A program made the position numbers and the translations under genes. A stretch of DNA of 64,000 nucleotides from a candidate division WWE3 bacterium RAAC2_WWE3_1 (GTDB lineage: Bacteria; Patescibacteriota; WWE3; UBA101185; UBA10185), in contig CP006914.1 in the NCBI GenBank assembly GCA_000503835.1, forward strand, positions 657,680-721,679, given 5' to 3'. The notes beneath the pieces were generated by a model. The model did no database searches and was not told the origin of the DNA. It worked only from the letters and a program-made list of their open reading frames with translations. Every line of letters starts with the position of its first letter. The first letter of the stretch is position 1. Below are positions 16,275 through 56,231 of the stretch, piece by piece.

Positions 16275-16610
16275 TTGTTAATATCCCCGTTTGTTAGTGT
16301 TAGAATATTTCTAATGCCGCGATCAATCACATCTTTGGGAAATTTCGAAGAGACCTCTCCGGAAGTACAAGAGCCCGGAATTGAAATTATTCCTCAAGTA
16401 ACTCCCGAAGTAGAAAAGGGGGGAGAAATGCCTTCTGTAGTCAATATACCGGAAACTGCCGCGCCTCCGATTGTTGATGTAAGCACGCACGAAACTCTAC
16501 CGGACCACCCCGTCACCCCGAAAGATTCCATAACATCTCTTGCGAACGAAGAGGAAAGCCGCTTCAGACAAGAAGTTCAGGAAGAAAAACTGCCCAATGG
16601 ATCAGCTTAA
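16275..16610 (+). CDS. hypothetical Pro/Glu-rich protein
   Basis: 111-aa low-complexity P/E/T-rich ORF. Its 3' end overlaps the VirB4-like gene start. Confidence 0.3.
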   Translation: MLISPFVSVRIFLMPRSITSLGNFEETSPEVQEPGIEIIPQVTPEVEKGGEMPSVVNIPETAAPPIVDVSTHETLPDHPVTPKDSITSLANEEESRFRQEVQEEKLPNGSA

Positions 16611-19041
16611 CAATCTAGATAGCATTAATACAACAGTCGAAAACACTGCGCACACAGCTGAATTTATTGCACCTATCCTTTTCGTCCTCTTCATAGCTCT
16701 TTATGTTTTTGTCGTGTGGAAGAAAAAACAGAACGAGAAAGTATCCCAATACAAGCTGACTTTTTTACAGGTTAAACTTCCCCCCGACAACGAAATAGAG
16801 GTAAAAGCCGCTGAACATATGTTTTCCAACCTGATGGGTTTTCAAAAAAGTTTCCTTCAATCCATATTTACAGAACCTTTTAGGATTTCGTTTGAGATAG
16901 TTTCAAAAGCCGACGGAATAGCATTTTACGTTGTCGCCCCAAATGAAATTGCAACTATAGTAGAAAAACAAATTAACGGAGCTTACCCTACGGCGGAAAT
17001 AGATATAATAAACCCCCATGAAATATGGGATAGGGGCTCTTACACACAGGTAGTGGAATTAAAACTACGCGGACCTTCATACTACCCACTCAAAATTTAT
17101 GAGGATCTGAAAAACGACTCTCTGAGCTCTATTACTTCTGCCATGAGTAAACTGAGCGATGACGAGGTCGTTGCGGTACAGTACGTTATTCAGCCTGCAG
17201 GGGATAACTGGAGACTGGCCGGTAGAAGATTTTGCTCCAGTATCAGACAACGGGCGGCTGATCCGGAAAAAAAGGTAAACATAGACACGTCATTCCTCGA
17301 AGGAATAGAAAAAAAGACCGCACTACCCGGGTTCTATACAAAGATCAGGATCGTCTCCGTGGCTAAAGACAAATTTGCCGCACAGTCCAACGTTCAGAAC
17401 ATGCTCAGCGCCTTCGAACAATTCACAAACATGAACTACAACAAACTTGTAAGGAAAACTATGATTTCGGCCAAAACTCTCATCAAAAATTTTATTTACA
17501 GAAAAATAAAAGTGAAGGATGTATACATACCTGTTGCCGGAATACAGATTTACTCCGATACGTCGGTCCTAAATATCGAAGAGCTTGCGACCGTGTTTCA
17601 CTTCCCGAATAAAAATATTGAGACGCCGAACATTATTTGGCTCACCGCGAGAAAATCTTCGGCCCCGGTCAACCTGCCGACAACCGGCCTTTACCTTGGA
17701 AAGAGTAACTTCAGGGGCGTAGAGAAGCAGATCTTTATGAGCCAGGAAGACAGGGCGCGGCACTTTTACATCATCGGACAAACGGGTACCGGTAAGTCTC
17801 AATTTTTAATGTCGCTTGCATTGCAGGATATCCAAAATGGCGAGGGTGTGGCAATAATAGACCCCCACGGAACTGATGTGGAGGAATTGTTAAAAAAGAT
17901 ACCGCCTTCAAGAAAAGATGATGTTATTCTTTTCGACGCGTCAGACACAGAAAGACCGATGGGTATAAACATGCTGGAAGCAAGGTCGGAAGAAGAGAAA
18001 CATCTGATAATCAACTCTTTCATAGCCCTTCTTTATAAACTTTACGACCCTAACCACCAGGGAATAATGGGGCCTGTTTTGGAGCGAACCGTAAGAAACG
18101 TTATGCTGACCGCGATGTCTGACCCGGACAGCACAATGATTGACGTTATGAGGCTCCTCACGGACTCCAACTACAGCAAAGTATTTATCGAAAGACTCAC
18201 CGACCCGCTGGTGAAAAGGTACTGGATAGACGAGGTCGCCAGCGTTCCGCAGGGAAAAAGGGGTGAAAATATGCAATATTTCACCGCTAAGTTCGACCGT
18301 TTCGTTACTGACAGAACTATGCGAAATATTTTAGGCCAGAAGAAATCCGCGTTTAATTTTGATGATGTTATGGCACAGAAAAAAGTACTTCTCGTCGATC
18401 TGTCAAAAGGAAAAATAGGCGAGGAAAATTCCAACTTTATTGGGTTATTATTGGTACCGAGAATATTATCAGCTGCCCTGAGAAGACATTCTCTATTAAC
18501 CAAGGGGGTCGCTTATCCGGACTTTTATCTCTACGTCGATGAATTTCAAAACTTCGCTACCCCTGACTTCGCGACAATCCTTTCGGAGGCCAGAAAGTAT
18601 AAATTGAACCTTACCGTTGCGCACCAGTTTATTTCCCAGCTCGATGACCAGATCAAAGAAGCCGTGTTCGGCAACGTCGGTACGATGTGTGCTTTCAGGG
18701 TGGGAGCGGAAGATTCGGAATTTCTGGAAAATCAATTTGCCCCTAAATTCACAAAGACCGATCTTATAAACCTATCGATAGGCAACTGCTACGCAAGAAT
18801 GCTTGTGAAAGGACAACCGACCCCTCCTTTCTCTCTGGCTGTAGACTGGAACAAGATAACTTCAACTCCAAAGGACGAGATACTGGCAAGGAACATCAAA
18901 GAAACATGCCGCCTCAAATACGGAGTTCCGGCAGAAGAAGTCGAAGAGTACATAAAACTCCGTGCCGGTTACGAAGAGAGAAAAGAACCGGAAGAGGCGC
19001 CCCTGCCTAAGATTCCTCCTCCCGGCAGAATTCCCTTTTAA
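16597..19041 (+). CDS. VirB4/TrbE-like type IV secretion ATPase (DUF87-type P-loop NTPase)
   Basis: About 815 aa. N-terminal TM helix. Walker A GQTGTGKS near residue 415. Walker B ...LYVDEFQNF and an ...EARKYKLNLTVAHQ motif about 240 aa downstream. This spacing is VirB4-like rather than VirD4-like. Confidence 0.5.
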   Translation: MDQLNNLDSINTTVENTAHTAEFIAPILFVLFIALYVFVVWKKKQNEKVSQYKLTFLQVKLPPDNEIEVKAAEHMFSNLMGFQKSFLQSIFTEPFRISFEIVSKADGIAFYVVAPNEIATIVEKQINGAYPTAEIDIINPHEIWDRGSYTQVVELKLRGPSYYPLKIYEDLKNDSLSSITSAMSKLSDDEVVAVQYVIQPAGDNWRLAGRRFCSSIRQRAADPEKKVNIDTSFLEGIEKKTALPGFYTKIRIVSVAKDKFAAQSNVQNMLSAFEQFTNMNYNKLVRKTMISAKTLIKNFIYRKIKVKDVYIPVAGIQIYSDTSVLNIEELATVFHFPNKNIETPNIIWLTARKSSAPVNLPTTGLYLGKSNFRGVEKQIFMSQEDRARHFYIIGQTGTGKSQFLMSLALQDIQNGEGVAIIDPHGTDVEELLKKIPPSRKDDVILFDASDTERPMGINMLEARSEEEKHLIINSFIALLYKLYDPNHQGIMGPVLERTVRNVMLTAMSDPDSTMIDVMRLLTDSNYSKVFIERLTDPLVKRYWIDEVASVPQGKRGENMQYFTAKFDRFVTDRTMRNILGQKKSAFNFDDVMAQKKVLLVDLSKGKIGEENSNFIGLLLVPRILSAALRRHSLLTKGVAYPDFYLYVDEFQNFATPDFATILSEARKYKLNLTVAHQFISQLDDQIKEAVFGNVGTMCAFRVGAEDSEFLENQFAPKFTKTDLINLSIGNCYARMLVKGQPTPPFSLAVDWNKITSTPKDEILARNIKETCRLKYGVPAEEVEEYIKLRAGYEERKEPEEAPLPKIPPPGRIPF

Positions 19042-23774: not shown

Positions 23775-23861
23775 AAAACAACAAAGATTAGACAGAATTC
23801 ACAAAATGGCCAAGACACCAAACAAAAAGCTTCCAACAAGCAACACAAGTTGCTTTATCAT

Positions 23862-23870: not shown

Positions 23871-23920
23871 CTTTTGATATATTTGACAAATCCCGCCTAA
23901 AAAGAAATTTTTTGCACCCT

Positions 23921-37687: not shown

Positions 37688-37927
37688 TTATAAATTTACA
37701 AGGGCGGCGAGCAAAAGTATTAACGCCACGAAAAAATGTAATCTTCCGAAAAATGAAAACACCGAGCCGAGCGGCGTTGAAAAACTTTTATTCATTAGCC
37801 TTATTTGTCTCATAAGAAGAAACGCGAAAATTAAATATCCTGCAACGAAGAATAGAACTACAAAGTCCGTTACGGTAATTACTCCCGCGGCAGGTATTAA
37901 ATTTTCTAAGCTAGGCGTTGTGTTCAT
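37688..37927 (-). CDS. small membrane protein
   Basis: 79 aa with two hydrophobic helices. Confidence 0.3.
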   Translation of the reverse strand: MNTTPSLENLIPAAGVITVTDFVVLFFVAGYLIFAFLLMRQIRLMNKSFSTPLGSVFSFFGRLHFFVALILLLAALVNL

Positions 37928-38471: not shown

Positions 38472-38513
38472 GCTGCAATTATAGCATTACGGTAGGTGAC
38501 CGGGGCAAAAAAG

Positions 38514-40415
38514 TTATTTTTTTAGAATGTTAAACAACGCCTTACTGTCGGGGGTATGTTTTATAGCTATGTATCCGGGCGCTCTTATGTTGAACGCTTC
38601 TGCGAATATTTGACCATCCACCTGTTTTTCCCCTTTATCTGTGATAAAAGTTAGAGTGGTGGTTCTACCGTCGTTGAATTTAATATTTTTTACTCCGGTG
38701 ACATTTTCGTAACCCGCGTTGCTATCAACGGATTTGGCTTTACCCCTAAGCTCTTCTTTGTCGTAAGGATCCCCGCTCATTCCGGCAATCGGGCATTTGT
38801 TTATGGTTTCAGGCAGAATTCTGCTGGTATTTTTGTTCGCTTTTAACAAAACGTATGCATTTAGGATGTCCGCCATTTCTTCTCCATTAAGCCAGGGGTG
38901 TTTTCTGCCGCAGGTAGAAGAATCCCTTTTGTATGTTTGTGTAAACCAAGCTTTATAGAACCAAGGTGACTCCGCCTTTTTTTCATACGCATCGTTTGGC
39001 CACGAACCTCCGTCTGTAATGTCCCACCCCACACCATTTATCCATCCACCGGTAGTAGAGGAGTATTGGGCTGACACGCCTCCTTTGAGAATTCTGTCTT
39101 TGGTGTCGTCGGCCTTTATTGCCTCGTACCACCTTTTTCTGTCATCTCTATTCATTAGAGAGCTGCTGAAATACTGACAGCTAGTAGAGGTACAAATGCA
39201 GCCCCCATCTTTGGTCTTATTGTAGGCGTAGGTTCTAGCTGCTATGGCCTGGGCTTTTAGGGCGTCTGTGTCCCATGATGGGGGCATTTCGCCCAACCCT
39301 CTCAGATACTCTCCCATTTTCATATCCCCCACGCCCTGCACACATATAGTTTTTCCGTCAAGACCGTCTTTTTTTTCTATCCCCGTCTCGTAATAGTATT
39401 CAAGAATTTCTTCAAAGCTTTGGCCATCCTCAGCGCGCCCTTTCGCCCCGTATTGGCTCATTCCATTTCGGTGTGTGTATGCTCCGTAGCTGAAGGATCC
39501 GAATGCCGGGCTGAAGCCGGGGTTATAGCCAGGGTCAGTTCTCGAGTCATCTGTTTCCACTCCCTCACTCAAGGAAGCACTAAAATCACCGGATTTTGCC
39601 TGCAAAACTGCCTGTTGTTTTGATGTGAGGTCTGCGAGATCCTCTTCTATTTCTCCCAACTTCCCCTCAACTTCTTTCTCGTCGCCGGTGACATTACTCA
39701 ACTCTCCCTGTGCGGAATTCTTTCGCGCGTCAAGTTCAGCTTTGGCGGCTAAAAACTCTTTTTGCGTATCTTCAAGTTCCCCCTTTAATTTTTCTCCCTC
39801 AGCTTTATCTTTTTCGTAGCTGTCTATTTCCGAATTCAATCCTGTGATTATTTTTATCGTTTCGTCGGTTACTGCGGTATTAAAAGCCTGGGATAGGGTA
39901 GCGAATTGAAAACCGTTCAATCCCGTTGAAGCATTTGTTACCAAAAAAGTTTCAATGTCGTTGAGCAGGTGTCTTTTGGAATATGTACGTACTACTTTGT
40001 TTCTTAGGGATATTTTTTCGGCAAGAGAAGTTTTTCTGTCTGCAAGTATCGCATTTATTTCATCGAGCTGTTTTTTTATTTTTGTGATTTCATTTTGAAG
40101 GTCATCGATCTCTGCTTGTGTCACGCTGATCTGGCTAAGAAGCCCGGAGATTTTTTGTGTTATCTGGTTTTTTGTTTCTCGGATTTGGGAAAGTTTGCTG
40201 CTTGTGGATTGGTATTCATCTTCTTTTTTTTCTATTTGTTCTTCGTAGCATTTTGCTTTGTCATCCAGGTCTGAGATGTTTTTGCAGGGGTCGTCTGCGA
40301 AGGTGTGGGTGGCCAGCAGCACTGCCAGGAGTGTAAACAAAAAGATAGTCCATACGCTGGAGTTTAGATGTTTAACGGATACAGATGTAGGCAGATGTAT
40401 GTTGGGCTCGAACAT
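38514..40415 (-). CDS. SpoIID/LytB-domain peptidoglycan-remodelling protein with long N-terminal coiled coil
   Basis: Signal/TM, then about 250 aa of coiled coil (SMC/CwlO-like). GMSQYGAKGRAEDGQSFEEILEYYY matches the SpoIID/LytB signature. Confidence 0.6.
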   Translation of the reverse strand: MFEPNIHLPTSVSVKHLNSSVWTIFLFTLLAVLLATHTFADDPCKNISDLDDKAKCYEEQIEKKEDEYQSTSSKLSQIRETKNQITQKISGLLSQISVTQAEIDDLQNEITKIKKQLDEINAILADRKTSLAEKISLRNKVVRTYSKRHLLNDIETFLVTNASTGLNGFQFATLSQAFNTAVTDETIKIITGLNSEIDSYEKDKAEGEKLKGELEDTQKEFLAAKAELDARKNSAQGELSNVTGDEKEVEGKLGEIEEDLADLTSKQQAVLQAKSGDFSASLSEGVETDDSRTDPGYNPGFSPAFGSFSYGAYTHRNGMSQYGAKGRAEDGQSFEEILEYYYETGIEKKDGLDGKTICVQGVGDMKMGEYLRGLGEMPPSWDTDALKAQAIAARTYAYNKTKDGGCICTSTSCQYFSSSLMNRDDRKRWYEAIKADDTKDRILKGGVSAQYSSTTGGWINGVGWDITDGGSWPNDAYEKKAESPWFYKAWFTQTYKRDSSTCGRKHPWLNGEEMADILNAYVLLKANKNTSRILPETINKCPIAGMSGDPYDKEELRGKAKSVDSNAGYENVTGVKNIKFNDGRTTTLTFITDKGEKQVDGQIFAEAFNIRAPGYIAIKHTPDSKALFNILKK

Positions 40416-40546
40416 GTGGGTTTATTATATCAGGTAACGTTTCGGATGCAGTAACGCATTAGGTAAAGAATAAGGCACTAAGCACCCTAAAAGCCGTGTC
40501 AATCTGTAGATTTTTTCCAAAATAACTGGTAGATTTTAATGTAGTT

Positions 40547-41350
40547 ATGTTCTTTGTGAAAAATAATTTCTTAAAAGTGTTGGGCATAGTATTTGTGCTT
40601 TCTCTTTCTATGACAACCACGACCGCCCCCTCTGTGTTTGCTGCTGAGGGTGGGGTGTGCTCGGGGTACACCTTACACAATACATGTGGCGGACAGAAAA
40701 CAGCGGATGGGCTCGAGTGCACTTGTGCGGTGGGGTACCGTTGTTTGGCCCCAAGCCTGTCTTGTTACTGCCAGAAAGATGATACGTGCGGTGTTGCCAC
40801 GGATATTTGTGATGCTGCCCACGAGGGTCAGTGCGGGGTTGCAGGGGGTTGTGGTAAAACAACAACAGTTTGTAAGAAGACGGTTGCAACCGTAAGCGGA
40901 GGCTCTCCGGTATATAACTACGACTGCGTATACGATTACTCTTCTCCGTGTGCATGCGTGTTGGGGCAAACATGCCCTGACGATGGTATCCACCAGTGTC
41001 TTCCTACCGGAGGTTGCTGGGCACCAACACCGACAAGTACAGGAGACTACACTTCAGGAGAATGGGTGTATAACGAACCTGAGTACAAAGGTCCTATAAT
41101 CACGGATATTGCCGGCCTTCTCGCCCCTGTTTTTAAAATCCTTTTCTACGCCGGCATTTTCATTGGAATATTAGGCATTATTTACTCAGGCTATCTGTTA
41201 ATCGCAAGCGAAGGCGACCCCGGAAGGGCAAAAGAAGGCAAAGATCAATTTACCGCAGCCATTTTAGGCACCCTTTTCGTGCTGTTGTCAGTATTAATAC
41301 TGCGGGTTATAATTAACAACATCCTGGGTGTTACCAACTCAGTATTGTAA
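40547..41350 (+). CDS. Cys-rich secreted domain fused to a VirB2/TrbC-like two-helix pilin module
   Basis: Signal peptide, about 130 aa with at least 20 Cys, then a C-terminal module (TM, SEGDPGRAKEGKDQ loop, TM, ...INNILG) that is paralogous to the three downstream small proteins. Confidence 0.5.
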   Translation: MFFVKNNFLKVLGIVFVLSLSMTTTTAPSVFAAEGGVCSGYTLHNTCGGQKTADGLECTCAVGYRCLAPSLSCYCQKDDTCGVATDICDAAHEGQCGVAGGCGKTTTVCKKTVATVSGGSPVYNYDCVYDYSSPCACVLGQTCPDDGIHQCLPTGGCWAPTPTSTGDYTSGEWVYNEPEYKGPIITDIAGLLAPVFKILFYAGIFIGILGIIYSGYLLIASEGDPGRAKEGKDQFTAAILGTLFVLLSVLILRVIINNILGVTNSVL

Positions 41351-41390: not shown

Positions 41391-41717
41391 ATGAACTTAT
41401 TATCTTTGTTAGAATCAAAGGTTTACGCGGCTGCTGCTCCTGTCGATAAAATAGAAGGTATTCCGGTTAGTAGCGTTAACGAACTCGTTACAGTTATAAC
41501 AAACATCCTTATTATTGTTGGAGTAGCTGTTGTCGTAATCTTTTTGGCCATGGGGTTTATTAAGTACATTACTTCAGGAGGAGACAAGAACGCTGTAGAT
41601 TCCGCGCAGAAGACACTTACCTACGCGGTCATCGGAGGAGTCGGGCTGCTTATAGTTTATGGGTTAAGAACGCTGCTATTGAACTTGCTGAATGCCCAGT
41701 CTCTTGAGGGCTATTAA
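41391..41717 (+). CDS. VirB2/TrbC-like pilin paralog
   Basis: 108 aa. TM, TSGGDKNAVDSAQKT, TM, LLLNLLN. Confidence 0.5.
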   Translation: MNLLSLLESKVYAAAAPVDKIEGIPVSSVNELVTVITNILIIVGVAVVVIFLAMGFIKYITSGGDKNAVDSAQKTLTYAVIGGVGLLIVYGLRTLLLNLLNAQSLEGY

Positions 41718-41750
41718 CCACGGGGCCGCCGCTTTAGTTTGCTATTAAGT

Positions 41751-41771
41751 GGGCCCGGTAGGCCCGGGCCC
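41751..41771 (+). other. GC-rich perfect hairpin (GGGCCCGG-N-CCGGGCCC) between pilin paralogs
   Basis: GGGCCCGGTAGGCCCGGGCCC. No U-run follows. Possible intra-operon attenuator or RNA-processing/stability element. Confidence 0.35.
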
Positions 41772-41797
41772 CCGTTATAATTTAGGAGTTTATTCAT

Positions 41798-42109
41798 ATG
41801 AGACCTTTCGAGTGGCTGGAAAGTGCTGTATCCAGCGTACCTATAGCTGTAGAGACAAATAAAGGAACGAATTTAACCGGGCTGGCGGTTATGTTTGCGA
41901 ATGTTGCCGTAATCATAGGGTTTGGCGTATCTCTTATAGGGCTTGCCTACTCCTTTATCATTTATATTACAAGTGGGGGGGATCCTAAATCAGTACAGAG
42001 AGCTCAAAGGTCTGCGACATGGTCAATCCTAGGTCTACTAGTGAGCTTGGCTGCATGGGGTATAAAAACTGTGCTACTTAACCTCTTGAATGTTACTGAT
42101 ATTTATTAA
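41798..42109 (+). CDS. VirB2/TrbC-like pilin paralog
   Basis: 103 aa. TM, TSGGDPKSVQRAQRS, TM, VLLNLLN. Confidence 0.5.
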   Translation: MRPFEWLESAVSSVPIAVETNKGTNLTGLAVMFANVAVIIGFGVSLIGLAYSFIIYITSGGDPKSVQRAQRSATWSILGLLVSLAAWGIKTVLLNLLNVTDIY

Positions 42110-42121: not shown

Positions 42122-42601
42122 ATGCTAAATCTACTTATATTAAAAATCATTAAATTTACAAAAATATTTTTCGTTCCTGTTTTTTATATTTTTCTTTCCT
42201 ATATTTTTTCACCGGTATTGTTTGCGGCGAATTTTGATGAACCTACATTAGGCCAGGCAAGGCCACTTCTTGTCAGCATCATGAACTGGCTGGTGTTTCT
42301 TGTCGGAATAGTATTTGTTATTGTCGTGGTTTACGGTGCCTGGAAAGCTTCGACAGCAACAGGGGACCCCCGTGGCCTCGACTCTGCGAAGAGCACCTGG
42401 AGCTACGCCATTTTCGGGCTGTTAGTTGTAGCAGGGTTTTTTGCTCTCTACACAATCATTTCCGGGCTTTTTGGTTTCAAGATAGGCTTTACAGAAATTT
42501 TTGACGGAATTTTTGACGGTATTTCGGAGCTTACTCAGATAGCAATTCCCAGTCCTGCGCCGTTACCTCCCCCAAGTGAACCTCCGCAGCAACCGCAGTA
42601 A
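42122..42601 (+). CDS. VirB2/TrbC-like pilin paralog with Pro-rich C-terminal tail
   Basis: 159 aa. TM, TGDPRGLDSAKST, TM, then a PSPAPLPPPSEPPQQPQ tail. Confidence 0.45.
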   Translation: MLNLLILKIIKFTKIFFVPVFYIFLSYIFSPVLFAANFDEPTLGQARPLLVSIMNWLVFLVGIVFVIVVVYGAWKASTATGDPRGLDSAKSTWSYAIFGLLVVAGFFALYTIISGLFGFKIGFTEIFDGIFDGISELTQIAIPSPAPLPPPSEPPQQPQ

Positions 42602-43252: not shown

Positions 43253-46200
43253 TTATCGTACAAATAATACTTCCTGAGCAAACCTTTGATGCACCGGGAA
43301 TTTATCCCAAAAGGCGTTGTAGTCGCCAAGAGGGTAAGTAAGTTTTGCTGTTGCCGAGCAGGAACCGAAAGTATTTATTGCTACCATGTCGCCGATAGTT
43401 TCGGCGAAATCCTCGCCGGTGCTGTTATTCGTGGTGCAGTTTCCGTCATACGTAGGTAATGTTTTTCCGCCCTCAAGTCCCTTTACGGAGTCAAATCCTC
43501 CAGGGAACCCCGGTACGGCGGTACTTGTGTTTAACCGCCAAAAATTATAAATGTGTCCCAATTCGTGAGCCAGGAGATAGCTTGTGGCATTTAACCTTGT
43601 GTAGTAGCTGGTGCATGTGTCGTTAAAAGTTATTATTCCGCTCCCCGAAGCGAATCCGCAGTACCCGCCTCCGCCGCTTACTCTGCTAAGCGTTATCTTT
43701 TTGTCATCCGAACAAAGAGTGCCCAAAAAAGTTCCTGTAATTCCCGAGATGTTCCACAAAGCGGCCTCAAAGTTTGCTCTTTCACCTCCGGGGAAGCCTT
43801 GAAATACAAAGCAATCCATGGGAACCGGAGGAGTCCCTATCCTTAAATATCTGGCGAAGGTAACCGTTTCTGCGGCGGTTCCCTGAAAGCTTGGGGTTTC
43901 CACCGAAAGCGTGTTTTTTAATAACGAGTTTTCAAAAGCGGTGCCTAGTGAAACCCCGTTAAGGGTTAGCGTGTAAGTTTCCCCCGCCGTGAACGCCCCA
44001 AGATTTTGATTGTCTGCGAGAGTCGCAACCGTCGTTTCCCCGTTCTTAGTTAGCTGAGTGACCACATCGGAAAACACGACTGAGGCTCCTTCGATGTCGA
44101 CCTTGGGAGTAATCCTTATCGTGTACGTTGCCGTTATTCCGGGTACGAGTTCGCCGTTATCCAGACTCTCCGTAGGGTTGAGTTTATTTGGTGTTCCACT
44201 GGCAAACGAAACCTCCACGTCCTTTTCAATTTTAATCAGTGCGTTTTCTCCTTGGGGAAGTCCGGCCCCCGTTCCTCCATACCCGCTATTGTCCCTGGTT
44301 GGGTCGATTGGAGATATAGAACTGAGGACAGTTCCGAACAATCCGTATACCAGAATATAGATTAGTATTAGCGGAATTCCTATAACATACATTGAAAACT
44401 TAACGACTTGCCCAATCTCTTTGTCTATTTGCGCTATTGCTTTGTTTATATCTCCCTGAGCCAATGCGCCCACAAAGTTTTGTCCGAATTCAACAACTTT
44501 TCTTGTTATGAAACGTACGAGGGGTTTTAAAACTTTTTCTATCAAATAATCCAAGACAACGGTGGCACCGCCGGTTGCTGCATGAAGGAATTTGGTCGCA
44601 AGTTCGGTTATTATAGTAGCAACTACTTCTGAGATTTTTTCTGCAACGATCGTTTTTATTTGTAGAACGGGACGGATAGCTTTTTGAAACAGGGCAAAGC
44701 CGAAGATTTTGTTTTGGAGTTTGTTCAGTCCTACCCCCAATCTCTGAATTGCACCGGAGAACTCCTTGGTTATCTTTAGAGACCCATAGAATTGGTTTTC
44801 TTTATTCAGACCATTGAAAAGTGCAAGGACGCGTTTTTGGGTGTCTGCGTCCATTGCCTGGAAATCGTCCCAAGAAATTCCAACAGATGCTCCGTTTGTT
44901 TTTAGCCATTCCTTAAAATCGTCGATTTGCTTTTGTACGATTTCTAGAAAATGATCGTCTTTGCTCCAAAAACCCGGTAGTTTTTCACCATAAATCTTTA
45001 CAAGCTTTCCATTTTTGTCCAGGACAGTGTCTGTGATTTTTCTTGCTGTTCCATCCGCTGTTTTCCCTCTAATCAAGTCCAGCAAATCGTCATCACTGAG
45101 GTGACTAACGTTTGATAGTGTGTTCCCTAAAGTTTCAACCGCTGCTAATTTTTTATCTCCAAGAAAGGTCGCTCCTATTTTATTACCGCCCTGAAATACT
45201 CCATCTTTATTGTCAAGTTCTACAGTAAATTTATGACGGAAGACATCATTAAAGCGTTTACTGTTTCTCAGTCCATCGGAAATGTAGTTATCGTCGATAA
45301 CTAGTCCAAAATATCCGACTTTGTTGAGAGTTTGTGTCGCAATCTCCCCCGGGGTATACCCGACCAGTTTCTTAGATAGCTTGTTCCAAACGTACCTCTC
45401 CATAAACTTTCCTTCTGTTACAGCGTCGTAAAATTCCTGTATAGCGTAAGAACCTCTATCTATCTCCAACCTGGAGGCCACCATTCGTGCTTTGTTCGCA
45501 AAAAACCCTTTGTAAACTTGTCCGTCCTTTTGGAAAAGCTGTTCCAAAGTTTCTCCGTTTAGATTTGGTTGTTTTGACAACTGCTCTAGCTCACTGAGAT
45601 AGGTGCCTATTTGAAACCTTTTATCAACACTTGTTAGTTTTCCGGGCAGTATGATGTCGCTTTCCATCTGTCTCAACAGACCGCGGTGAATACTCGTGTC
45701 GAACAAACCACCTCCGGTTAGTTCTTTTCCGTTCACAGTGATGTTCGCTATTTTGTTATATAACTGGCGGTCGTCTCCTGTGTACGTATTAAGAGCGTCT
45801 TGTACTTTACGTAGATACTCTTTATACATGTCAGTATGTTTCTGAAGTGCTGTTGCGGATGCCAGATCAATTTTCTTTACACGCTCAATAGTCTGGTCAA
45901 TCGAGTCGTCCCCGGTTGCTGCCAACCTATTAGAGATGTTTGTTTTTAAAGACGCCATTTTTGCTTCAAATCGCGTCTGAGTTCCTGTCGGACTTTCTTT
46001 GGAGTCCCAACGGGCTTCTTCGTCCGTGCTTCCGGAAATTCTCGCTTTGAGGGCACTTTTAAGTCCGAACCTACCTGATATAGCTCCGTCCATAACTATA
46101 TCCATATCGTTGGCCAGTTTGTTTTTTTCGGCTAATATTTTTACGGCATTTTGGAAGTTTTCCGCTTGTTTGGGGTCGGAATAGAGTTGCGAAAAGAGCT

Positions 46201-47074
46201 CTACACGGCTTTTGGATTTGGTCAGTGGATTTCCCTTGCTGTCGACTTTCTGGACTCCTGCCTCGTCGAGGTCGGGCACATTGTATTTTCCATTAAGCTC
46301 TGCTCCAATTCCTTTGGATAGAGATGATACAAAGCTGTCGAACTTGCCGTCCCTTTTCTGACCGGCCTGCATAACTTTTTGGACATCCACAACATTCTTA
46401 GCCATCGTTTCATAAATTTTTCCCACCCCGTCGACGTAGTCGGCTTCAGGAAAGTTGAAAAGTGCTCCACTGCTGTCCGGAGAACCTGCCATTGCCTTAG
46501 TTGCGGAGGTAATTGACACTCCTCCCTCTCTTCCCAGGGGGCTAACATCCTCTTGCAATCCCATCGCAACTCGCCACATACCCGATTTAACACGGGTGTC
46601 GTAGTCAGTTAAATCTACCGGCCACGCTTCAAGCCCCCAGCCTTTTTTCTGGAACCGTAGACCGGTGCCGGCCTTTATCCAGCTTTTCGCCGTTTTTTCC
46701 AACACCTTGCCGGGATCCTGCCATTCTGCCGGGTCGAGGGTCAGGCTGATGCTAGATACGCCCGGCATAACGTCTTGGTCGTAATCATCCATCTGCTCTA
46801 CCGGTATATCGCCAGGATTGTAAGTTGCTTTCAGATTGCTCTTAAAGTCATCAACATATCTATCTAAAAACCACTTAGGAAGATTTCCCGCGTCAAAAGA
46901 CATCTGATCCAACTGCTCCAGCCAGTAGTCGGCATTGTATTCATATTTTCCTAGGGGAACTCCGGGGGGCGGTCTATAAGCCCTTTGTCCTTGAGAATAC
47001 CCCGGAAAAAGCGGGTTGGTAGAGTCCCCCTCTTTTTGTGGTATGTACCCCGGAAATAGGGGATTGTTTGCCAT
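43253..47074 (-). CDS. giant (1273 aa) membrane-anchored protein with C-terminal HEXXH zincin-like domain
   Basis: No N-terminal signal peptide. NPLFPGY x2 at the N-terminus. Single TM about 870 aa in (YVIGIPLILIYILVYGLFGTVL). C-terminal about 370 aa with Ig-like segment and LLAHELGHIYNF...EDFAE (HEXXH plus downstream Glu). Confidence 0.6.
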   Translation of the reverse strand: MANNPLFPGYIPQKEGDSTNPLFPGYSQGQRAYRPPPGVPLGKYEYNADYWLEQLDQMSFDAGNLPKWFLDRYVDDFKSNLKATYNPGDIPVEQMDDYDQDVMPGVSSISLTLDPAEWQDPGKVLEKTAKSWIKAGTGLRFQKKGWGLEAWPVDLTDYDTRVKSGMWRVAMGLQEDVSPLGREGGVSITSATKAMAGSPDSSGALFNFPEADYVDGVGKIYETMAKNVVDVQKVMQAGQKRDGKFDSFVSSLSKGIGAELNGKYNVPDLDEAGVQKVDSKGNPLTKSKSRVELFSQLYSDPKQAENFQNAVKILAEKNKLANDMDIVMDGAISGRFGLKSALKARISGSTDEEARWDSKESPTGTQTRFEAKMASLKTNISNRLAATGDDSIDQTIERVKKIDLASATALQKHTDMYKEYLRKVQDALNTYTGDDRQLYNKIANITVNGKELTGGGLFDTSIHRGLLRQMESDIILPGKLTSVDKRFQIGTYLSELEQLSKQPNLNGETLEQLFQKDGQVYKGFFANKARMVASRLEIDRGSYAIQEFYDAVTEGKFMERYVWNKLSKKLVGYTPGEIATQTLNKVGYFGLVIDDNYISDGLRNSKRFNDVFRHKFTVELDNKDGVFQGGNKIGATFLGDKKLAAVETLGNTLSNVSHLSDDDLLDLIRGKTADGTARKITDTVLDKNGKLVKIYGEKLPGFWSKDDHFLEIVQKQIDDFKEWLKTNGASVGISWDDFQAMDADTQKRVLALFNGLNKENQFYGSLKITKEFSGAIQRLGVGLNKLQNKIFGFALFQKAIRPVLQIKTIVAEKISEVVATIITELATKFLHAATGGATVVLDYLIEKVLKPLVRFITRKVVEFGQNFVGALAQGDINKAIAQIDKEIGQVVKFSMYVIGIPLILIYILVYGLFGTVLSSISPIDPTRDNSGYGGTGAGLPQGENALIKIEKDVEVSFASGTPNKLNPTESLDNGELVPGITATYTIRITPKVDIEGASVVFSDVVTQLTKNGETTVATLADNQNLGAFTAGETYTLTLNGVSLGTAFENSLLKNTLSVETPSFQGTAAETVTFARYLRIGTPPVPMDCFVFQGFPGGERANFEAALWNISGITGTFLGTLCSDDKKITLSRVSGGGGYCGFASGSGIITFNDTCTSYYTRLNATSYLLAHELGHIYNFWRLNTSTAVPGFPGGFDSVKGLEGGKTLPTYDGNCTTNNSTGEDFAETIGDMVAINTFGSCSATAKLTYPLGDYNAFWDKFPVHQRFAQEVLFVR

Positions 47075-47131: not shown

Positions 47132-48472
47132 ATGAGTAAAACAACGAAATTTTTATTACCCGTCGTCATTTTTTCAATCATATTTTCTCTTGTACAGGGA
47201 TCTGTTTTTGCCGCCGACCCGAAGTGCGAGGTTGAAAAAAGAATGTTCGATAAAAACCTTTTCAGCGACTTATTAGGAATTCCTCTAACTACAAAAGATT
47301 TTGTTACATCCGTGGCCACTTCGGCATATAGCACCGTCTCAGGATTTGGAATAACCGAGACCGTAAATTGCGGTAGCTATGTGGCCACCAAACTGAGTTT
47401 ACCTACAACAGGAGGCATCGGATACTTTTACGATTGCTCGGGGACCGACACAGCGGTGTGTGATCAAATGTTGAATTCCCAACCTTCCGGGGGTTCGGCA
47501 GGAACAACCAATTGGTTAGCTTCCTACTCACAAAGTCGGGTTGCAGGAACGTTGCTGGGCGCGGCTTACTTAACTGAAAATTTCACAATGAACGAACCTT
47601 TGCCCGCCAACCTTGCTTTTTATGTCAACGATACTTTATCAAGGGTTCCGATAGTTAACAAAACGTTTGCGGCAACACAGGACTACGGTCACGCTCTGCT
47701 TAATTCGATTTTGGGTACCTGGAAAGTATTCCGAAATCTTGCATATGCTTTGATGGCTATCATCCTTCTTTACACAGGAATAATTATTATCTTGAGAAGA
47801 AAAATCAGTTCTCAGCTGGTGGTCAGCGTTCAGTACGCTTTGCCCAGAATAATAATAGCCATAATACTAATCACATTCAGTTATCCGATTGGAGCTACCA
47901 TCGGAAGTTTGGGTTGGACTTTATTTAAAAGTAATTGGGCAATCGCAGAAAGCATTTTCAGGGACAGTTTTGCAGGAACCGCTATAGCAGGCACTATTGC
48001 GCAGGGAGGGGCTCTCAGACTTTGGGCAACCATGATTCCCTTGATTTCTTTAACAGGTACCGGACCTATATTTTTATTGGCGATAGTTGCGATTGTAATT
48101 ATATATTTGGTCGCCGGTCTGATATTTAACTTCAAAGCAATAATCATTTATATCAAGATAATACTTTCAATACTAACTGCCCCGCTGGAATTTGCACTGG
48201 GTGCCGTGCCCGGAAACGACGAAAAGATAAAAGGGTGGTTTATGAGAATGGCCAAATATACGCTCACGTTGTTCGCGATGGGTATTATTCTGCCTCTGGG
48301 AACGATCATCGCTATGTTCGTTGCTCTGGATTACGCTGTTGAAACTGCAGGTGTCGGAGTACTTTTATCGATGGCAATGCCGATTTTCATAATTCTCTAC
48401 TGTTTCGGAATAGGAATAGGAATGGAAAAGAGAATTGAAGAGTTTATGGGTACGGGTCAGAAGAAAAGATAA
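47132..48472 (+). CDS. VirB6/TrbL-like polytopic membrane protein
   Basis: Signal peptide, about 190-aa extracytoplasmic N-domain, then 5-6 TM helices. This topology is typical of VirB6. Embedded between two giant surface-protein genes. Confidence 0.45.
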   Translation: MSKTTKFLLPVVIFSIIFSLVQGSVFAADPKCEVEKRMFDKNLFSDLLGIPLTTKDFVTSVATSAYSTVSGFGITETVNCGSYVATKLSLPTTGGIGYFYDCSGTDTAVCDQMLNSQPSGGSAGTTNWLASYSQSRVAGTLLGAAYLTENFTMNEPLPANLAFYVNDTLSRVPIVNKTFAATQDYGHALLNSILGTWKVFRNLAYALMAIILLYTGIIIILRRKISSQLVVSVQYALPRIIIAIILITFSYPIGATIGSLGWTLFKSNWAIAESIFRDSFAGTAIAGTIAQGGALRLWATMIPLISLTGTGPIFLLAIVAIVIIYLVAGLIFNFKAIIIYIKIILSILTAPLEFALGAVPGNDEKIKGWFMRMAKYTLTLFAMGIILPLGTIIAMFVALDYAVETAGVGVLLSMAMPIFIILYCFGIGIGMEKRIEEFMGTGQKKR

Positions 48473-48487: not shown

Positions 48488-51400
48488 TTAGTTCGGTAGT
48501 TGCGTTGCGCTGCCTCCTGCGTAGCACGAGCTCCACAGGATACCTTTTTCCGTCCAGTAACCTGCTAGTTCAGTATCAGCGTATGCCCCGACCCTATTTC
48601 CTCCAAATGCAAGATCCTTTATCGATTCGGAGGCTTGGGGCCATGTCAAATTTGCGCAACCTGAACCGGATAATTCTTTAGCCGCAGCGAACGTGGCATC
48701 AAGGAAGTTACATCTGGACGCGACAGCGCTTCTTCCGGCGGACAGGGCATCCAGTTCTGAGGAAATGTCCACTTTATCAAACCAAGTCTTTATCCAATCG
48801 TAAGGTCCTATAGCTGCAGTGTTTGTGTCGTCGCATTGGGACACCTTACCATACCAGGGAAAGCTGGCTTCAAAAAGAGCCTGTTCGCCTGCAGTTGAAA
48901 ACAGATATTGATACAAAGGTATGTCCGGTTTGTGCACAACTTTTAGATAGGTTATTATCGATGCTGCCGGTACCTGATATATACTTGCAGCCGCGTCCAC
49001 AATTAATCTGAAGGTGGGGGAGAGTGCTCCGATGCCGCTTCCAAAATTATTTGTGCACTCCTGTGTAGTGGAAAGTTGGCACGCGGGAACTAAGCTTTGC
49101 GCAAGCACATTTGGATCTATTATTTCAGGAATAGGCACCGGATTGAGGGGGCATAACCATCCTGTGCTGGAGCCTAGCTCGCTGTTAATACAGTGATAGT
49201 TTAAAGTATCTCCTCCGGAATAGGGATTAACGTATAGTGCGTGGGCAGATATCATTTTATATTCCGGAGCAGCCCCCCCGAATCCCATAATGTCTTTATT
49301 CTTATTCTCAGAAACATTGGTAGTGTCCTGACTTACCGATGTGTTAGCGGACATAAAAGCAAGATTTCCGTAAACTTTGTTTGTGAGGGGGTGAGAAAGC
49401 TTTTTCCACATTTCGTTATTTATTATTTTTGTGGAATCTAAGCCAACATCCGGAGTTGCTTCCCTGAAAGTTGATTGTGATGATCTAAAGTTGGAGTCTT
49501 TGGAAACGGAGGCGGCGCAGGTATACGGGCCTGCGTCCTGCAAGTTACATGCATGCCCCTTGTCGCTTTCATCCACCCTCTTTATTGCGCAGGAAGTATT
49601 TTCTTGGCCGACACAGTATTCCCTAGGTCCTATCTCACCGGGACAGTTGTAAACTACGCACCCTGAAGAAGGCATGGTGTTCAGACTTCCCCAATAGCTG
49701 TCGGAACTCTCAGCGGGGCAGGTGACGTTGGCGTCCAGATTGTAACCATAATTTTGACTCATACAGGAGAGATCCGGAGTTCCCCCACTCATGCAATCTA
49801 TGTTTTTTTCTATGCATTGTTGGATTAGTGTAGTGTCCCCTGTTGTCGGACATTGTTCTGTTTTAACTGATGGAGCGCAGCCATACTTTACGACGCTTCC
49901 ATTGACCACCTGGCAAGTGCAGGTTTCCACTTCCTGTACCGTCACACAGTTTTCAACCTTGCATGTTCTTGTAATTTCGCTCGGAGCTGGGGCATTCCAA
50001 CGTTCGTAACAGCTATCTCCGACACCTATCTCGTTCCAAGGGTAGCAGGCTGAATTTCCCCACTGGTCGCTGGATAAATTTGCTGTGGTAGGCAGTCCGA
50101 AAACATTCTCAAAATTCTCCTCGCTCAGGTCAAATCCTACCTGTATGTCGTCTCTTAAGTCTCCTGCGCCCGGGTCAAGGTTATAAGTACTGGTTCTGTC
50201 AAAATACGATTTGTTGTCCGACCCTAGACCGCTATTAATCGCCGCACCTATCCATGTGAGAAACAAGGTAATAGGATTATAGCTTCCCGAGCCGTGGGAT
50301 GACGTCAAAAGACTGTCGTATATATCCATTCTCTTTGTGACCTCGTTTGTAAGGTTCTCGTAGGCATACTCTCTGAATTTTGCGGCCGTTGTATAGAATA
50401 TGGTGGAGGTGGCTGTTCTTTTGCCTTTTGGGCTTAATTCTACGGTATCAAAATAATGGTCCTGGTTGCCTTTAAAATCATTATTCATATCCACAGTAGC
50501 TTCGTTTTGCGGTAAGAACACGTCGTTGTGGTTGTTAACATTGGAATTTTCGCAGAATGAGAGTAAGTTTGATCCCGCATCCTCTATTTTGATTGTTCCC
50601 TGGTCATAGAGCGCTTTATCTTCCAATGTTTCCCCCGGCCTTTGAAGGACGTAACTTAAACTATAGCTGGTTTTACTAAGCTCTGATGTAGCAATCCCCG
50701 CCATAATGGGTGTAAGTCCGTTGTTTCTGGATAGGGCGTAGTTATTATCCGAGTAGTATGTTCCTCCCTTTACGGGAACACCGCCCTTTTCTTGGTTTCT
50801 GGTAAACGTTTTTTGATTTACGCCGGCTCCGTAAAAAGTATCGTTTGTTCCTTCAAAGCTGTACCCAACCTTTGTTGATGTACCTTTATTTCCGAAAAAA
50901 TATGAAAATTCAGGATTCCAGTATGTTTTATCCAGAACAAACGTGCACCCTGCTTTACCGGGCGTGCAGTAGCTCCATGGGGGTTGTATGTCGCCTATTT
51001 TTATCTTTGTCCCGCCTTTTTGGCAAACGTATGTACCTTTTATACTGTCATCTAAAGTTGCTTCAGTCTCCGATAGTAAGATTGCAGGATTAGCCAAATT
51101 TCTGGCGGGCCCTGCGCTGTATTGTCTATTTCTATAATCTCCTTCAACTGTCGCACTTGCAGAATTGCATGATTTTAGTTCATCGCATTCGGGCAAAACA
51201 TCTTTGGTCGTATCGTTCCTTTCTCTTAGGTAAACGCTTCCTCTGCAGTTACTGAAAATTGTGTGCAGAAGCTGAGCAGGGGCGGTGGGGTTTTGCGAAT
51301 AATTTACGACATCCTGTCTGGCAGTAATGTCTTTAAAGAATAACAAGGAGTTTTTAATCGGAATATTAGGTAAAAAATTCATCCTGGTAAACAGGGCGTT

Positions 51401-52300
51401 GGTGTAAAGGTTGTTTTCGTAAGCATTTCGGGCTGTTCCCTGCTGTGCTATAGTTGAACCCGCAGGGGGGTTAAAACAAAGGGCGCTTACGGTATCCTGA
51501 CTGCCGTATATTCTCTGGCAATCTTCGTGATAAAAAGCTCCTTTATCCGGAGTGACGTCCGGATCATTTAGCCATCTGTCGAACTCTCCGATTACGCTTC
51601 CCCGCACTTTATATCTCGAATCCGCGTTAGTTATTTTCAGGAAAAAATTAAATTCGAGCTCAGGTTTGTAGGCCTGACTAAAAGTACCCTCGTATGAGGG
51701 AAGAAGAGAAGTGTCTGCCGGATTAGTTCTCGTTATATCGCAGCTCAACTTGTTAAAACTTACCGGATTTAATTGGGGCGGGGGTGGTGCATAGCTTGAG
51801 GCACCTGTACAGCTTAAGGGGGTGTTCAACGTAAAACTTGCGTAAGAAGGTATTCTAAATAGCCCTGCTAATTTCCCCCCGCAGGCAAATGCGAGGTACC
51901 TTATTTGGTTGTTTCCGACTTTCCTCATTGTTATGTAGTAGTAACCATTTTCATCGGAGGAGGTTGAGGAGAAGATGTTTGTTAGAGCCCCGTCGCTTTT
52001 GCAGGTAGGGGAAGTGGGGTCGCATTCGTACATATAAACAGAAACCCCTTCAATAGGGGGATTTGGACTGGCCGTAGTGGCACCTCCGACATCTACTTCC
52101 TGTGGGGTGGCACTTCTTACTACTCCGCAAACTACACCGAGTCTTGGATCTTCAGTTTTACGGCACGTTGTTCCGGGTTCGAAAACATCTGAGGGATCTG
52201 TTAAGTCCGCAGCGTGTGTAGTTGTTTTTCCAATACCCGCCGCAAAAATGAACAGCAATAATGAAAAAATATATTTTCCGCTCAGAAATTTGTACCTCAT
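48488..52300 (-). CDS. giant (1270 aa) secreted Cys-rich surface protein
   Basis: Cleavable signal peptide (MRYKFLSGKYIFSLLLFIFAAGIGKTTTHA). More than 60 Cys distributed throughout. No TM after the signal peptide. Confidence 0.6.
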   Translation of the reverse strand: MRYKFLSGKYIFSLLLFIFAAGIGKTTTHAADLTDPSDVFEPGTTCRKTEDPRLGVVCGVVRSATPQEVDVGGATTASPNPPIEGVSVYMYECDPTSPTCKSDGALTNIFSSTSSDENGYYYITMRKVGNNQIRYLAFACGGKLAGLFRIPSYASFTLNTPLSCTGASSYAPPPPQLNPVSFNKLSCDITRTNPADTSLLPSYEGTFSQAYKPELEFNFFLKITNADSRYKVRGSVIGEFDRWLNDPDVTPDKGAFYHEDCQRIYGSQDTVSALCFNPPAGSTIAQQGTARNAYENNLYTNALFTRMNFLPNIPIKNSLLFFKDITARQDVVNYSQNPTAPAQLLHTIFSNCRGSVYLRERNDTTKDVLPECDELKSCNSASATVEGDYRNRQYSAGPARNLANPAILLSETEATLDDSIKGTYVCQKGGTKIKIGDIQPPWSYCTPGKAGCTFVLDKTYWNPEFSYFFGNKGTSTKVGYSFEGTNDTFYGAGVNQKTFTRNQEKGGVPVKGGTYYSDNNYALSRNNGLTPIMAGIATSELSKTSYSLSYVLQRPGETLEDKALYDQGTIKIEDAGSNLLSFCENSNVNNHNDVFLPQNEATVDMNNDFKGNQDHYFDTVELSPKGKRTATSTIFYTTAAKFREYAYENLTNEVTKRMDIYDSLLTSSHGSGSYNPITLFLTWIGAAINSGLGSDNKSYFDRTSTYNLDPGAGDLRDDIQVGFDLSEENFENVFGLPTTANLSSDQWGNSACYPWNEIGVGDSCYERWNAPAPSEITRTCKVENCVTVQEVETCTCQVVNGSVVKYGCAPSVKTEQCPTTGDTTLIQQCIEKNIDCMSGGTPDLSCMSQNYGYNLDANVTCPAESSDSYWGSLNTMPSSGCVVYNCPGEIGPREYCVGQENTSCAIKRVDESDKGHACNLQDAGPYTCAASVSKDSNFRSSQSTFREATPDVGLDSTKIINNEMWKKLSHPLTNKVYGNLAFMSANTSVSQDTTNVSENKNKDIMGFGGAAPEYKMISAHALYVNPYSGGDTLNYHCINSELGSSTGWLCPLNPVPIPEIIDPNVLAQSLVPACQLSTTQECTNNFGSGIGALSPTFRLIVDAAASIYQVPAASIITYLKVVHKPDIPLYQYLFSTAGEQALFEASFPWYGKVSQCDDTNTAAIGPYDWIKTWFDKVDISSELDALSAGRSAVASRCNFLDATFAAAKELSGSGCANLTWPQASESIKDLAFGGNRVGAYADTELAGYWTEKGILWSSCYAGGSATQLPN

Positions 52301-52354: not shown

Positions 52355-52840
52355 ATGGGAGCCCATATTTTAGCTAAAAAAGATTACGTTCTGGCAAAGA
52401 ATAAAAAAGCCTTGCACAATTTTGCGGTCCTCGAGACTTATGTTGCAGGATTGGAATTAAAAGGCTATGAAGTCAAAGCAATCCGTGAGGGAAAAGTAAG
52501 TTTTGAGGGCTCTTATGTAGAAGGTGAGGACGGCGAGCTTTATGTAGTCAATTTATACATCGGCCGCTACTCTAAACAATCCAAAAACTTTGTCGAGGAG
52601 GATGCTAAGAGGAATAGAAGACTGCTTCTTAACAAAAATGAGGTATTAGGGGTCCTCCGTGACATTTCAGAAAAAGGGAAAACGGCCGTTCCTTTAGCTT
52701 TGGTTCTTAGGAACGGACGCATAAAGCTGGAAATTGCGGTTGCCAAGGGTAAGGGGGAATTTGAAAAAAAGGTAGTTACAAAAGAACGGCAGCTACAGCT
52801 CGACTTGGCGCGGGAAGCGAAAGAAATAATGTCCCGTTAA
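52355..52840 (+). CDS. smpB: SsrA-binding protein SmpB
   Basis: KKALHNFAVLETYVAGLELKGYEVKAIREGKVSFEGSYV matches the SmpB core. A tmRNA gene follows immediately. Confidence 0.85.
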   Translation: MGAHILAKKDYVLAKNKKALHNFAVLETYVAGLELKGYEVKAIREGKVSFEGSYVEGEDGELYVVNLYIGRYSKQSKNFVEEDAKRNRRLLLNKNEVLGVLRDISEKGKTAVPLALVLRNGRIKLEIAVAKGKGEFEKKVVTKERQLQLDLAREAKEIMSR

Positions 52841-52911: not shown

Positions 52912-53300
52912 GGGGATGCACAGGATTTGATTGAGTCCGATTTCGTGCAGTCGCAAGCAGGGGAGCTGAACCCTTATATTTAGCAAAACCATAAATGCCG
53001 ATAAAGACGCATTTGTAGGCGTACCAGCAATGGCCGCCGTAGCAGCTTAATTTATTAACGCTGCGGATCCCGTTTCTTTTGCCCGGAAGGGTTTACGGGG
53101 TCTAATAAATCCGGGAAGAGGTCATATCAGCAATAGCCCTGTTGATACACCGGGGATGAAAAATCCAAAGATCTTAGCTTGCGGTAGGGCAGAAAAGGTT
53201 CTTCAAGCACCCGGCTCTATCTAAGATAAGCTTGGATAAGTTTGTAGAAGCTGCATGAGAAGTTCTCAAGACGGGGGTTCGATTCCCCCCATCTCCACCA
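52912..53300 (+). ncRNA. ssrA: transfer-messenger RNA (tmRNA, SsrA)
   Basis: 5' GGGGATG pairs with 3' CATCTCC(A)CCA (G3-U wobble). Canonical T-arm GGGGGTTCGATTCCCCC. Internal tag ORF ending ...GCA GCT TAA (AMAAVAA*) at 52997-53050. Confidence 0.8.
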
Positions 53301-56126: not shown

Positions 56127-56214
56127 GGAGGGTTGGCAGAGCGGTAATGCAGCGGCTTGCTAAGCCGTGACGGTTAATTGCCGTCCACAGGTTCGAATCC
56201 TGTACCCTCCGCCA
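56127..56214 (+). tRNA. tRNA-Ser (anticodon GCT)
   Basis: Acceptor GGAGGGT/ACCCTCC, anticodon loop TTGCTAA, long variable arm GACGGTTAATTGCCGTC, T-arm ACAGGTTCGAATCCTGT, G73, CCA encoded. Confidence 0.85.
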
Positions 56215-56231
56215 AGAAACAACAACTTATA

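Follow-up and report, generated by a model that had tools for sequence, protein, structure and literature searches.

A cysteine-rich, variable head on a VirB2-like pilin of candidate division WWE3: a candidate determinant of host recognition

To our knowledge, how epibiotic bacteria of the candidate phyla radiation (CPR), or Patescibacteria, recognise their hosts is largely unexplained. Candidate division WWE3 is an uncultured, ultra-small bacterial member of this lineage, and a 64,000-nucleotide stretch of the genome of the WWE3 bacterium RAAC2_WWE3_1 (contig CP006914.1; hereafter the window, to which all coordinates refer) carries a gene that raises this question in concrete form. The gene, at 40547..41350 on the + strand and called gene 1 here, stands first in a series of four pilin-like genes and places a large cysteine-rich head between its signal peptide and its pilin module. 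We asked what kind of protein it encodes, how the head has evolved and what the head might do at the cell surface. The pilin module proves to be common to all four genes, and that of gene 1 is strongly conserved among relatives of the locus, while the head diverges from relative to relative as a discrete island, and we lean towards reading gene 1 as a pilus subunit with a variable recognition head.

Gene 1 is one open frame of 267 aa, matched by PF18895 at aa 188-254, and falls into four parts. A Sec-type signal peptide (aa 1-33; 40547..40645) was read from the sequence as a basic n-region with K5/K10, a hydrophobic core at aa 11-22 and the end ...SVFA|AEGG, at which cleavage is predicted from the sequence; AlphaFold2 (AF2) models a helix at aa 5-23. 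There follow the cysteine-rich head (aa 34-160; 40646..41026), a cysteine-free linker rich in Pro, Thr and Tyr (aa 161-185; 41027..41101), with a predicted local distance difference test score (pLDDT) below 50, and a two-helix VirB2/TrbC-like pilin module (aa 186-267; 41102..41347). All cysteines of the protein lie between the signal peptide and the module, with none in the module itself. A first-pass annotation of the DNA had proposed this order of signal peptide, cysteine-rich ectodomain and a pilin module held in common with three paralogues, and the architecture is borne out; its count of at least 20 cysteines was too high, as there are 18, at aa 38-157. The nearest relatives are WWE3 metagenome-assembled genomes, and full-length homologues of gene 1 include P0001-P0004 and P0006. 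Nor is the cysteine-rich part a separate gene: it is fused in the same frame in more than 30 independent homologues and in 16 of 16 distinct syntenic loci examined, a count that takes in locus L019, where a stretch of masked N interrupts the gene. At about 1150-1420 of that locus the orthologue, broken by the run, first seemed to be headless; a cysteine-rich head of about 330 aa was found in frame upstream of it.

The C-terminal module consists of two hydrophobic helices (aa 188-220 and aa 225-260) with the basic loop SEGDPGRAKEGKDQ between them, and AF2 models it as a helical hairpin with a pLDDT of 70-79. The topology that sequence and model give for gene 1 (signal peptide, outside, transmembrane segment, short cytoplasmic loop, transmembrane segment, outside) fits the definition of VirB2-like proteins as (S)OMIMO (preprint 10.64898/2025.12.18.695078). 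PF18895 (T4SS_pilin) scores genes 1-4 at 27.1, 25.8, 27.5 and 25.4 bits, always in the two-helix region; against the curated gathering cut-off of 26.6 bits, genes 1 and 3 lie above and genes 2 and 4 just below. The same profile is matched by 30/30 family members (best E 1.6e-8), and TrbC (PF04956) is weakly matched by 13/30. A hidden Markov model (HMM) built solely from the gene 1 modules of the homologues finds genes 2, 3 and 4 at E-values of 2.6e-9, 1.8e-9 and 4.4e-7, and the four modules of the array align pairwise at 21-28% identity, so that the C-terminal likeness to the neighbours noticed at first reading holds under profile search and alignment alike. Because of PF18895, the module HMM, the four-way alignment and the weak TrbC matches, the products of genes 1-4 are, as judged from profiles and alignments, VirB2/TrbC-like pilins of a type IV secretion system (T4SS), of the Patescibacteria kind. 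The earlier term pilin therefore stands for a two-helix secretion pilin module, the type that PF18895 describes, and falls for a type IV pilus pilin: gene 1 has a Sec-type signal peptide and no class III leader or prepilin-peptidase site (G|F/M-xxxE), its hydrophobic helices are paired and C-terminal, and no type IV pilus family appeared in the Pfam or NCBIfam output. Homology to VirB5/TraC/TrwJ was also looked for; PF18895 was the only Pfam or NCBIfam match of gene 1, and no VirB5 structure was among the Foldseek matches.

Gene 1 is followed on the + strand by three cysteine-free VirB2-like pilin genes: the short gene 2 (41391..41717; 108 aa), the short gene 3 (41798..42109; 103 aa) and gene 4 (42122..42601; 159 aa), which has a Pro-rich C-terminal tail. 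VirB2-like pilin arrays of Patescibacteria have already been published (PMC10633639; PMC12102498, Quinonero-Coronel et al. 2025; review PMC12857230), and such an array is essential for epibiotic growth of Southlakia epibionticum, a cultivated, genetically tractable Saccharibacterium (Wang et al. 2023, PMC10633639). With four genes at 21-28% identity, the array described here falls within the published description of 2-11 tandem pilins with a mean identity of about 25%. Genes 2-4, at 103-159 aa, are also small single-domain pilins of the published sort (about 50-150 aa), and gene 1, with about 150 aa of head and linker inserted, is not. Judged by sequence, what is new here is therefore an array member that has the profile, topology and array setting of a VirB2-like pilin yet is no small single-domain protein; our literature searches returned no mention of a cysteine-rich, extended or head-bearing VirB2-like pilin.

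This arrangement is conserved among relatives. The same four-gene array, with the head-bearing gene first, occurs in 16/16 distinct syntenic WWE3/Patescibacteria loci examined (within L001-L020), where gene 1 encodes 223-620 aa with 10-56 cysteines after the signal peptide and a cysteine-free module; in genes 2-4, cysteines are absent from most loci and few at most elsewhere. The gene 1 module is the best conserved of the four array modules, a point in favour of a structurally central role over that of a dispensable accessory. Among the matches examined, the head architecture is confined to a WWE3-centred clade. Longer PF18895 proteins of other Patescibacteria were considered as further head fusions and proved to be tandem fusions of pilin modules: these polypeptides of about 200-260 aa (P0112, P0147, P0154, P0162-P0178, P0188 and P0213), with 2-3 modules covalently joined, represent another way of elaborating a VirB2-like subunit.

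The head itself is defined by its cysteines. Their spacing (8,10,1,5,6,1,5,6,7,5,6,17,7,1,5,7,5) resolves into three six-cysteine groups with CxC motifs, and the probability of at least 18 cysteines in 120 aa is about 2e-17 against a cysteine background of 0.84% in the remaining 51 ORFs of the window. In a set of 33 full-length proteins, head length runs from 85 to about 500 aa and cysteine content from 6 to 56, and the number of cysteines after the signal peptide is even in 32 of the 33, not all of which are independent; such even parity is a signature of a fully disulfide-bonded extracellular domain. Among close relatives that carry the head type of the window, 17 of the 18 cysteine columns are invariant, as against 17% of the non-cysteine head positions and 72% of the module.

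Which fold these cysteines hold together is another matter, and the earlier description of the head as disulfide-knot-like did not survive, as no known cysteine-rich family could be assigned, be it knottin/ICK (inhibitor cystine knot), hevein CBM18, CBM1, EGF-like or another. Thirty heads scanned against Pfam at E<=1 gave no match of any kind, NCBIfam yielded no cysteine-rich domain for the gene 1 protein of the window, and the poor AF2 model of the head (pLDDT 25-70) found no fold match in Foldseek against the PDB. The model of the whole protein, built from a 12-sequence alignment, has a pLDDT of 56.8, and the hairpin alone is credible. A phmmer search of the head against 1.84 billion representative proteins recovered one true relative cluster only (P0003), making the head a near-orphan. 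The three other matches were weak and partial and were rejected: P0032 and P0033 are junk repetitive translations, and P0031 is a giant GLUG-repeat protein.

Comparison with related loci locates the variation in the head with some precision. Against the syntenic locus L020, protein identity is 50% in the head, 93% in the module, 92% in the linker and 19% in the signal peptide, and most neighbouring genes are 77-97% identical in protein (a SpoIID-like gene stands at 63%). The nonsynonymous divergence (dN) of the head is 0.55, compared with 0.01-0.20 for the neighbours at 77-97%, and a sliding DNA comparison reveals a sharp island at about 40500-41000, with 42-54% identity against a background of about 80%. 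Against L003, L007 and L008, module identity is still 80-86%, but BLASTP finds no match for the head at all; more generally, the module stays at 80-97% identity across loci whose heads cannot be aligned. For pairs with 75-90% module identity, head similarity is detectable in only 15 of 109, and 35 heads fall into 13 similarity groups. The comparison of orthologues suggested at first pass is thus positive: they differ hugely in the head and barely in the pilin module. A second sharp divergence island against L020 was observed in the adjoining gene, which encodes a SpoIID/LytB-domain protein: at 38500-39700, DNA identity drops to 42-64% against the background of about 80%, the island covering the C-terminal two-thirds of the protein and leaving the N-terminal coiled-coil part (39700-40415) conserved. 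A second fast-evolving extracellular protein therefore sits beside the pilin head gene.

Continuous positive selection on the head was considered as the cause and found no support, since the head has a dN/dS of 0.086 against its closest relative, L005; at the next distance beyond L005 synonymous divergence (dS) in the head is saturated and dN/dS is not computable. The proportion of synonymous differences (pS) is 0.79 in the head (saturated), 0.42 in the module and 0.54-0.74 in most flanking genes, a synonymous divergence consistent with a mosaic gene. Silent cassettes, repeats of a diversity-generating retroelement and a shufflon were sought in the 64-kb window with the head as query (tblastn, and blastn at word size 7), and gene 1 alone was returned; the ORFs of the window that were scanned with Pfam showed no reverse transcriptase or recombinase. 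Because purifying selection prevails against L005, the divergence is confined to an island and the window holds no cassettes, repeats or retroelement, the pattern looks, on sequence evidence, like recombination that episodically exchanges the entire head allele over a constant module, and not like continuous hypermutation.

How would such a protein act? Building on the observed architecture, module homology, array conservation, cysteine parity and head-specific divergence island, we consider it somewhat better than an even bet that gene 1 encodes a chimeric Patescibacteria VirB2-like pilus subunit whose surface-displayed, disulfide-scaffolded, variable head serves host recognition; from these observations we infer polymerisation, position in a filament, disulfide bonding and binding. 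In the mechanism we propose, Sec export and cleavage of the signal peptide would leave the C-terminal hairpin in the membrane in the out-TM-in-TM-out arrangement (TM, transmembrane segment) of VirB2/TraA, and the hairpin might then polymerise with, prime or cap the three short paralogues on a VirB6-like platform. In the F pilus both the N- and the C-terminus of the pilin face outward and the loop between the helices faces the lumen (PMC5018250), so an insertion between the signal peptide and helix 1 is topologically suited to being shown on the outer surface of a VirB2-type filament or at its far end. With the N-terminus outward in VirB2-type filaments, the head would be displayed as a conserved cysteine scaffold bearing hypervariable loops, whole alleles of which would be exchanged between lineages. 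It could then be the recognition or adhesion determinant for the surface of the host bacterium, a role that VirB5 or separate adhesins take in other T4SSs. A variable recognition or adhesion head is favoured because of the outward topology, because VirB5, the usual tip protein, is unfound in monoderm-type systems such as pCF10, because a survey of Patescibacteria T4SSs detected no adhesins in their loci (PMC12102498) and because the array is essential in the single Saccharibacterium in which it was studied. The tip adhesin or minor pilin setting binding specificity that was first proposed would be one form of this; tip, minor and shaft subunit are all three possible. A bolder version, tentative at best, makes gene 1 a two-domain conjugative-type pilin that caps or decorates a T4SS pilus, acts in place of VirB5 as the primary determinant of the host cells to which the epibiont attaches or into which it injects, and shifts host range by recombination of whole head alleles on a constant module.

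Several points weigh against a recognition head on a pilus subunit. The filament, the incorporation of gene 1 into it and binding by the head all enter by inference. The PF18895 scores lie right at the gathering threshold, Foldseek against the PDB gave nothing at E<=0.001, and a module profile against PDB sequences returned designed proteins and HtrII hairpins and no pilin; the conjugative pilin of A. pernix (8dfu), at Foldseek rank 8 (E 1.5, TMt 0.67), is consistent with the assignment and proves nothing. The head is modelled with low confidence and, in the comparison with L005, is under purifying selection of the ordinary kind. Were each subunit of a five-start filament to bear a head of about 15 kDa, the steric demands would be considerable, and the top conservation of the gene 1 module poorly fits a low-copy accessory subunit, so that the product could instead be a major or central component. 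Finally, the VirB4/VirD4-like ATPase lies 21 kb off, outside the array cluster.

Of the other explanations, the one that survives best, although we think it unlikely, is that gene 1 encodes a membrane-anchored surface protein and no filament subunit. The module would then only anchor the cysteine-rich ectodomain, perhaps docked to the base of a T4SS, and the head would be a receptor, a contact-zone adhesin or a gatekeeper or nucleator of pilus assembly. In a monoderm, an anchor and a linker of about 25 aa would already expose the head; VirB2 pilins do sit in the membrane until they are assembled (PMC12624023), conservation of the module is unusually high, as expected of a part with fixed partners, and no pilus has been visualised for any WWE3 bacterium. 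However, the module shares homology with PF18895 and with the three short pilins encoded next to it, and the gene is always the first of the array, a position suggestive of co-assembly. MurJ, MurT, LytR and sortase genes in the window also imply a cell wall, in which a head held some 25 residues from the membrane would be buried.

The evolutionary pattern of the head could also be read as defence, the head serving as a decoy or shield against phages or predators for which the pilus is the receptor, or in kin discrimination, with no part in host specificity. Phages classically attach to the termini of conjugative pilins (PMC5018250), and a discrete island, whole-allele replacement and purifying selection within alleles are typical of surface antigens under negative frequency-dependent selection. 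The present data do not distinguish defence from adhesion, and the two are not exclusive, but a conserved cysteine scaffold that is retained by every lineage although it costs 100-500 aa speaks for a positive function and not for mere camouflage, and we regard a purely defensive head as distinctly improbable. Less probable again, and in our view very unlikely, is a released effector, that is, a defensin-, knottin- or bacteriocin-like head cleaved in the linker to act on the host cell, with the module as its export or targeting carrier. Small, modular, disulfide-rich heads with six-cysteine units and CC/CxC motifs do resemble toxin and antimicrobial scaffolds, the linker between head and module is conserved, and the Patescibacteria T4SS has been proposed to export proteins (PMC10633639); on the other side, no toxin or antimicrobial family was matched, no protease site or immunity gene is evident, and a head that already crosses the membrane via Sec does not need the T4SS for its export. 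An artefact or chance, in the form of a mis-assembled or frameshift-fused ORF or a fortuitous cysteine-rich stretch, deserves next to no credence: nothing was seen to favour it, and it is already refuted by the conservation data, with the fused frame recurring in more than 30 independent assemblies and all 16 distinct syntenic loci examined, together with the cysteine enrichment and parity given above.

The surroundings of the array offer further candidates for a secretion apparatus, and their order is rigid. Upstream, the syntenic genes are TsaD, ProRS, a Val/Ile-type aminoacyl-tRNA synthetase, L25, hyp119, hyp602, DUF5657, hyp186 and the SpoIID-like gene (-); downstream of the array (+) come hyp~205 (-), a protein of about 1270 aa (-), a polytopic protein of 446 aa (+) and another protein of about 1270 aa (-). 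The SpoIID/LytB-domain protein (38514..40415, - strand; 633 aa; PF08486 E 9.6e-15; TIGR02669 93 bits), which has an N-terminal coiled coil, is divergently transcribed and adjoins the array in every locus that has an upstream flank, and it may possibly be a partner for cell-wall remodelling with a VirB1-like role. The 446-aa protein (47132..48472, + strand), a conserved polytopic membrane protein with 7-8 hydrophobic segments and an AF2 pLDDT of 84.4, is encoded about 4.5 kb downstream of the array and is syntenic in most of the longer related loci. It has no Pfam or NCBIfam match, and the fold that matches it best in the PDB is that of TrwI/VirB6 from the R388 stalk (7o3v_F, prob 0.99, E 0.19, TMt 0.45); this fold match, below significance, is suggestive and makes the protein a candidate VirB6-like platform for pilus assembly. 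A T4SS-family ATPase of the TraD/VirD4/CedB-like kind (16540..19041, + strand; 833 aa), with one N-terminal transmembrane segment and Pfam matches to DUF87, TraG-D_C and TrwB_AAD_bind, lies 21.5 kb upstream of the array; its NCBIfam matches (SXT_TraD, E 9.8e-15; CD1115 VirD4-like, E 1.1e-12) are all below the curated cut-offs, and the matches to DUF87, TraG-D_C and CedB/CedD are sub-threshold as well. Its position 5 kb from dnaA (23861-25330) echoes the reported clustering of Patescibacteria T4SS genes by the replication origin (PMC12102498).

Other features of the window were recorded alongside. Between the second and third pilin genes (41735-41790, + strand) lies a GC-rich palindrome, gggcccggtaggcccgggccc, with no T-tract after it; it was rejected as a terminator or attenuator, its folding being no better than that of shuffles (z -0.12), and a terminator scan called none on the + strand. 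Two giant conserved proteins without a family match, encoded on the - strand at 43253-47074 and 48488-52300, flank the VirB6-like gene; one of the pair (1270 aa) has a signal peptide and 42 cysteines, and the other (1273 aa) has a single transmembrane segment near aa 890-913 and a C-terminal HELGH zincin-like motif. The gene for a 79-aa DUF5657 membrane protein (37688-37927, - strand; PF18901 in orthologues) overlaps the 186-aa two-TM gene at its start and is conserved in the syntenic loci with gene calls (L001-L004, L020). An FtsA/PilM-like actin-fold protein is encoded at 19060-20274, after the 833-aa ATPase. Further along, smpB (52355-52840) is followed directly by the tmRNA gene (52912-53300; tag ADKDAFVGVPAMAAVAA), and the TTG start called for the UDP-GlcNAc 2-epimerase ORF (56178-57320) overlaps tRNA-Ser(GCT) at 56127-56214, so its true start is probably downstream.

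An outward, disulfide-scaffolded head on a pilin would offer a concrete, testable candidate for the specificity determinant that is missing from accounts of Patescibacteria. As a VirB2-family subunit to which a large ectodomain has been added, gene 1 would also, as far as we know, be the first of its kind; it would bear on how much cargo the surface of a conjugative-type filament can carry, and it would suggest a natural scaffold for display or retargeting.

Gene 1 can be set beside several known systems. With knottins or ICK, hevein-like CBM18 domains and conotoxin-type frameworks, the head has in common conserved six-cysteine units with hypervariable loops between the cysteines, an even cysteine count and modular repetition, but the lengths of its loops depart from the canonical ICK and hevein patterns. 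FimH/PapG, CofB/TcpB and R64 PilV likewise join a polymerisation domain common with the shaft to a variable receptor-binding domain, though in filament families and folds unrelated to gene 1. The PilV shufflon, which also sets alternative variable parts on a constant part, varies within a genome, whereas the gene 1 head varies between genomes by what looks like allele replacement, with no shufflon or cassettes in the window. VirB5/TraC/TrwJ tip proteins and CagL resemble gene 1 in the proposed role, as the recognition element of a T4SS pilus, a role left vacant by the absence of VirB5 from monoderm-type and Patescibacteria systems; they have no sequence or fold relation to it, VirB5 being an all-helical soluble pentamer that sits on VirB6 and gene 1 a VirB2-fold subunit with an added domain. 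The VirB2/TraA/TrbC pilins (F pilus, T-pilus, R388 TrwL and PrgF of pCF10) share with gene 1 a signal peptide, a two-helix hairpin and a basic loop, and also an N-terminus predicted to lie outside, where an N-terminal fusion would be exposed on the filament. Their canonical members, however, have about 60-120 aa when mature and no extra domain, and resemble gene 1 at the level of a Pfam clan only. The published Patescibacteria arrays are likewise chromosomal CPR arrays of tandem divergent PF18895 pilins with T4SS-family genes and dnaA nearby; they are described as arrays of small pilins, with no large N-terminal ectodomain and no cysteine-rich or hypervariable head, whereas in the loci studied here the first gene always has one.

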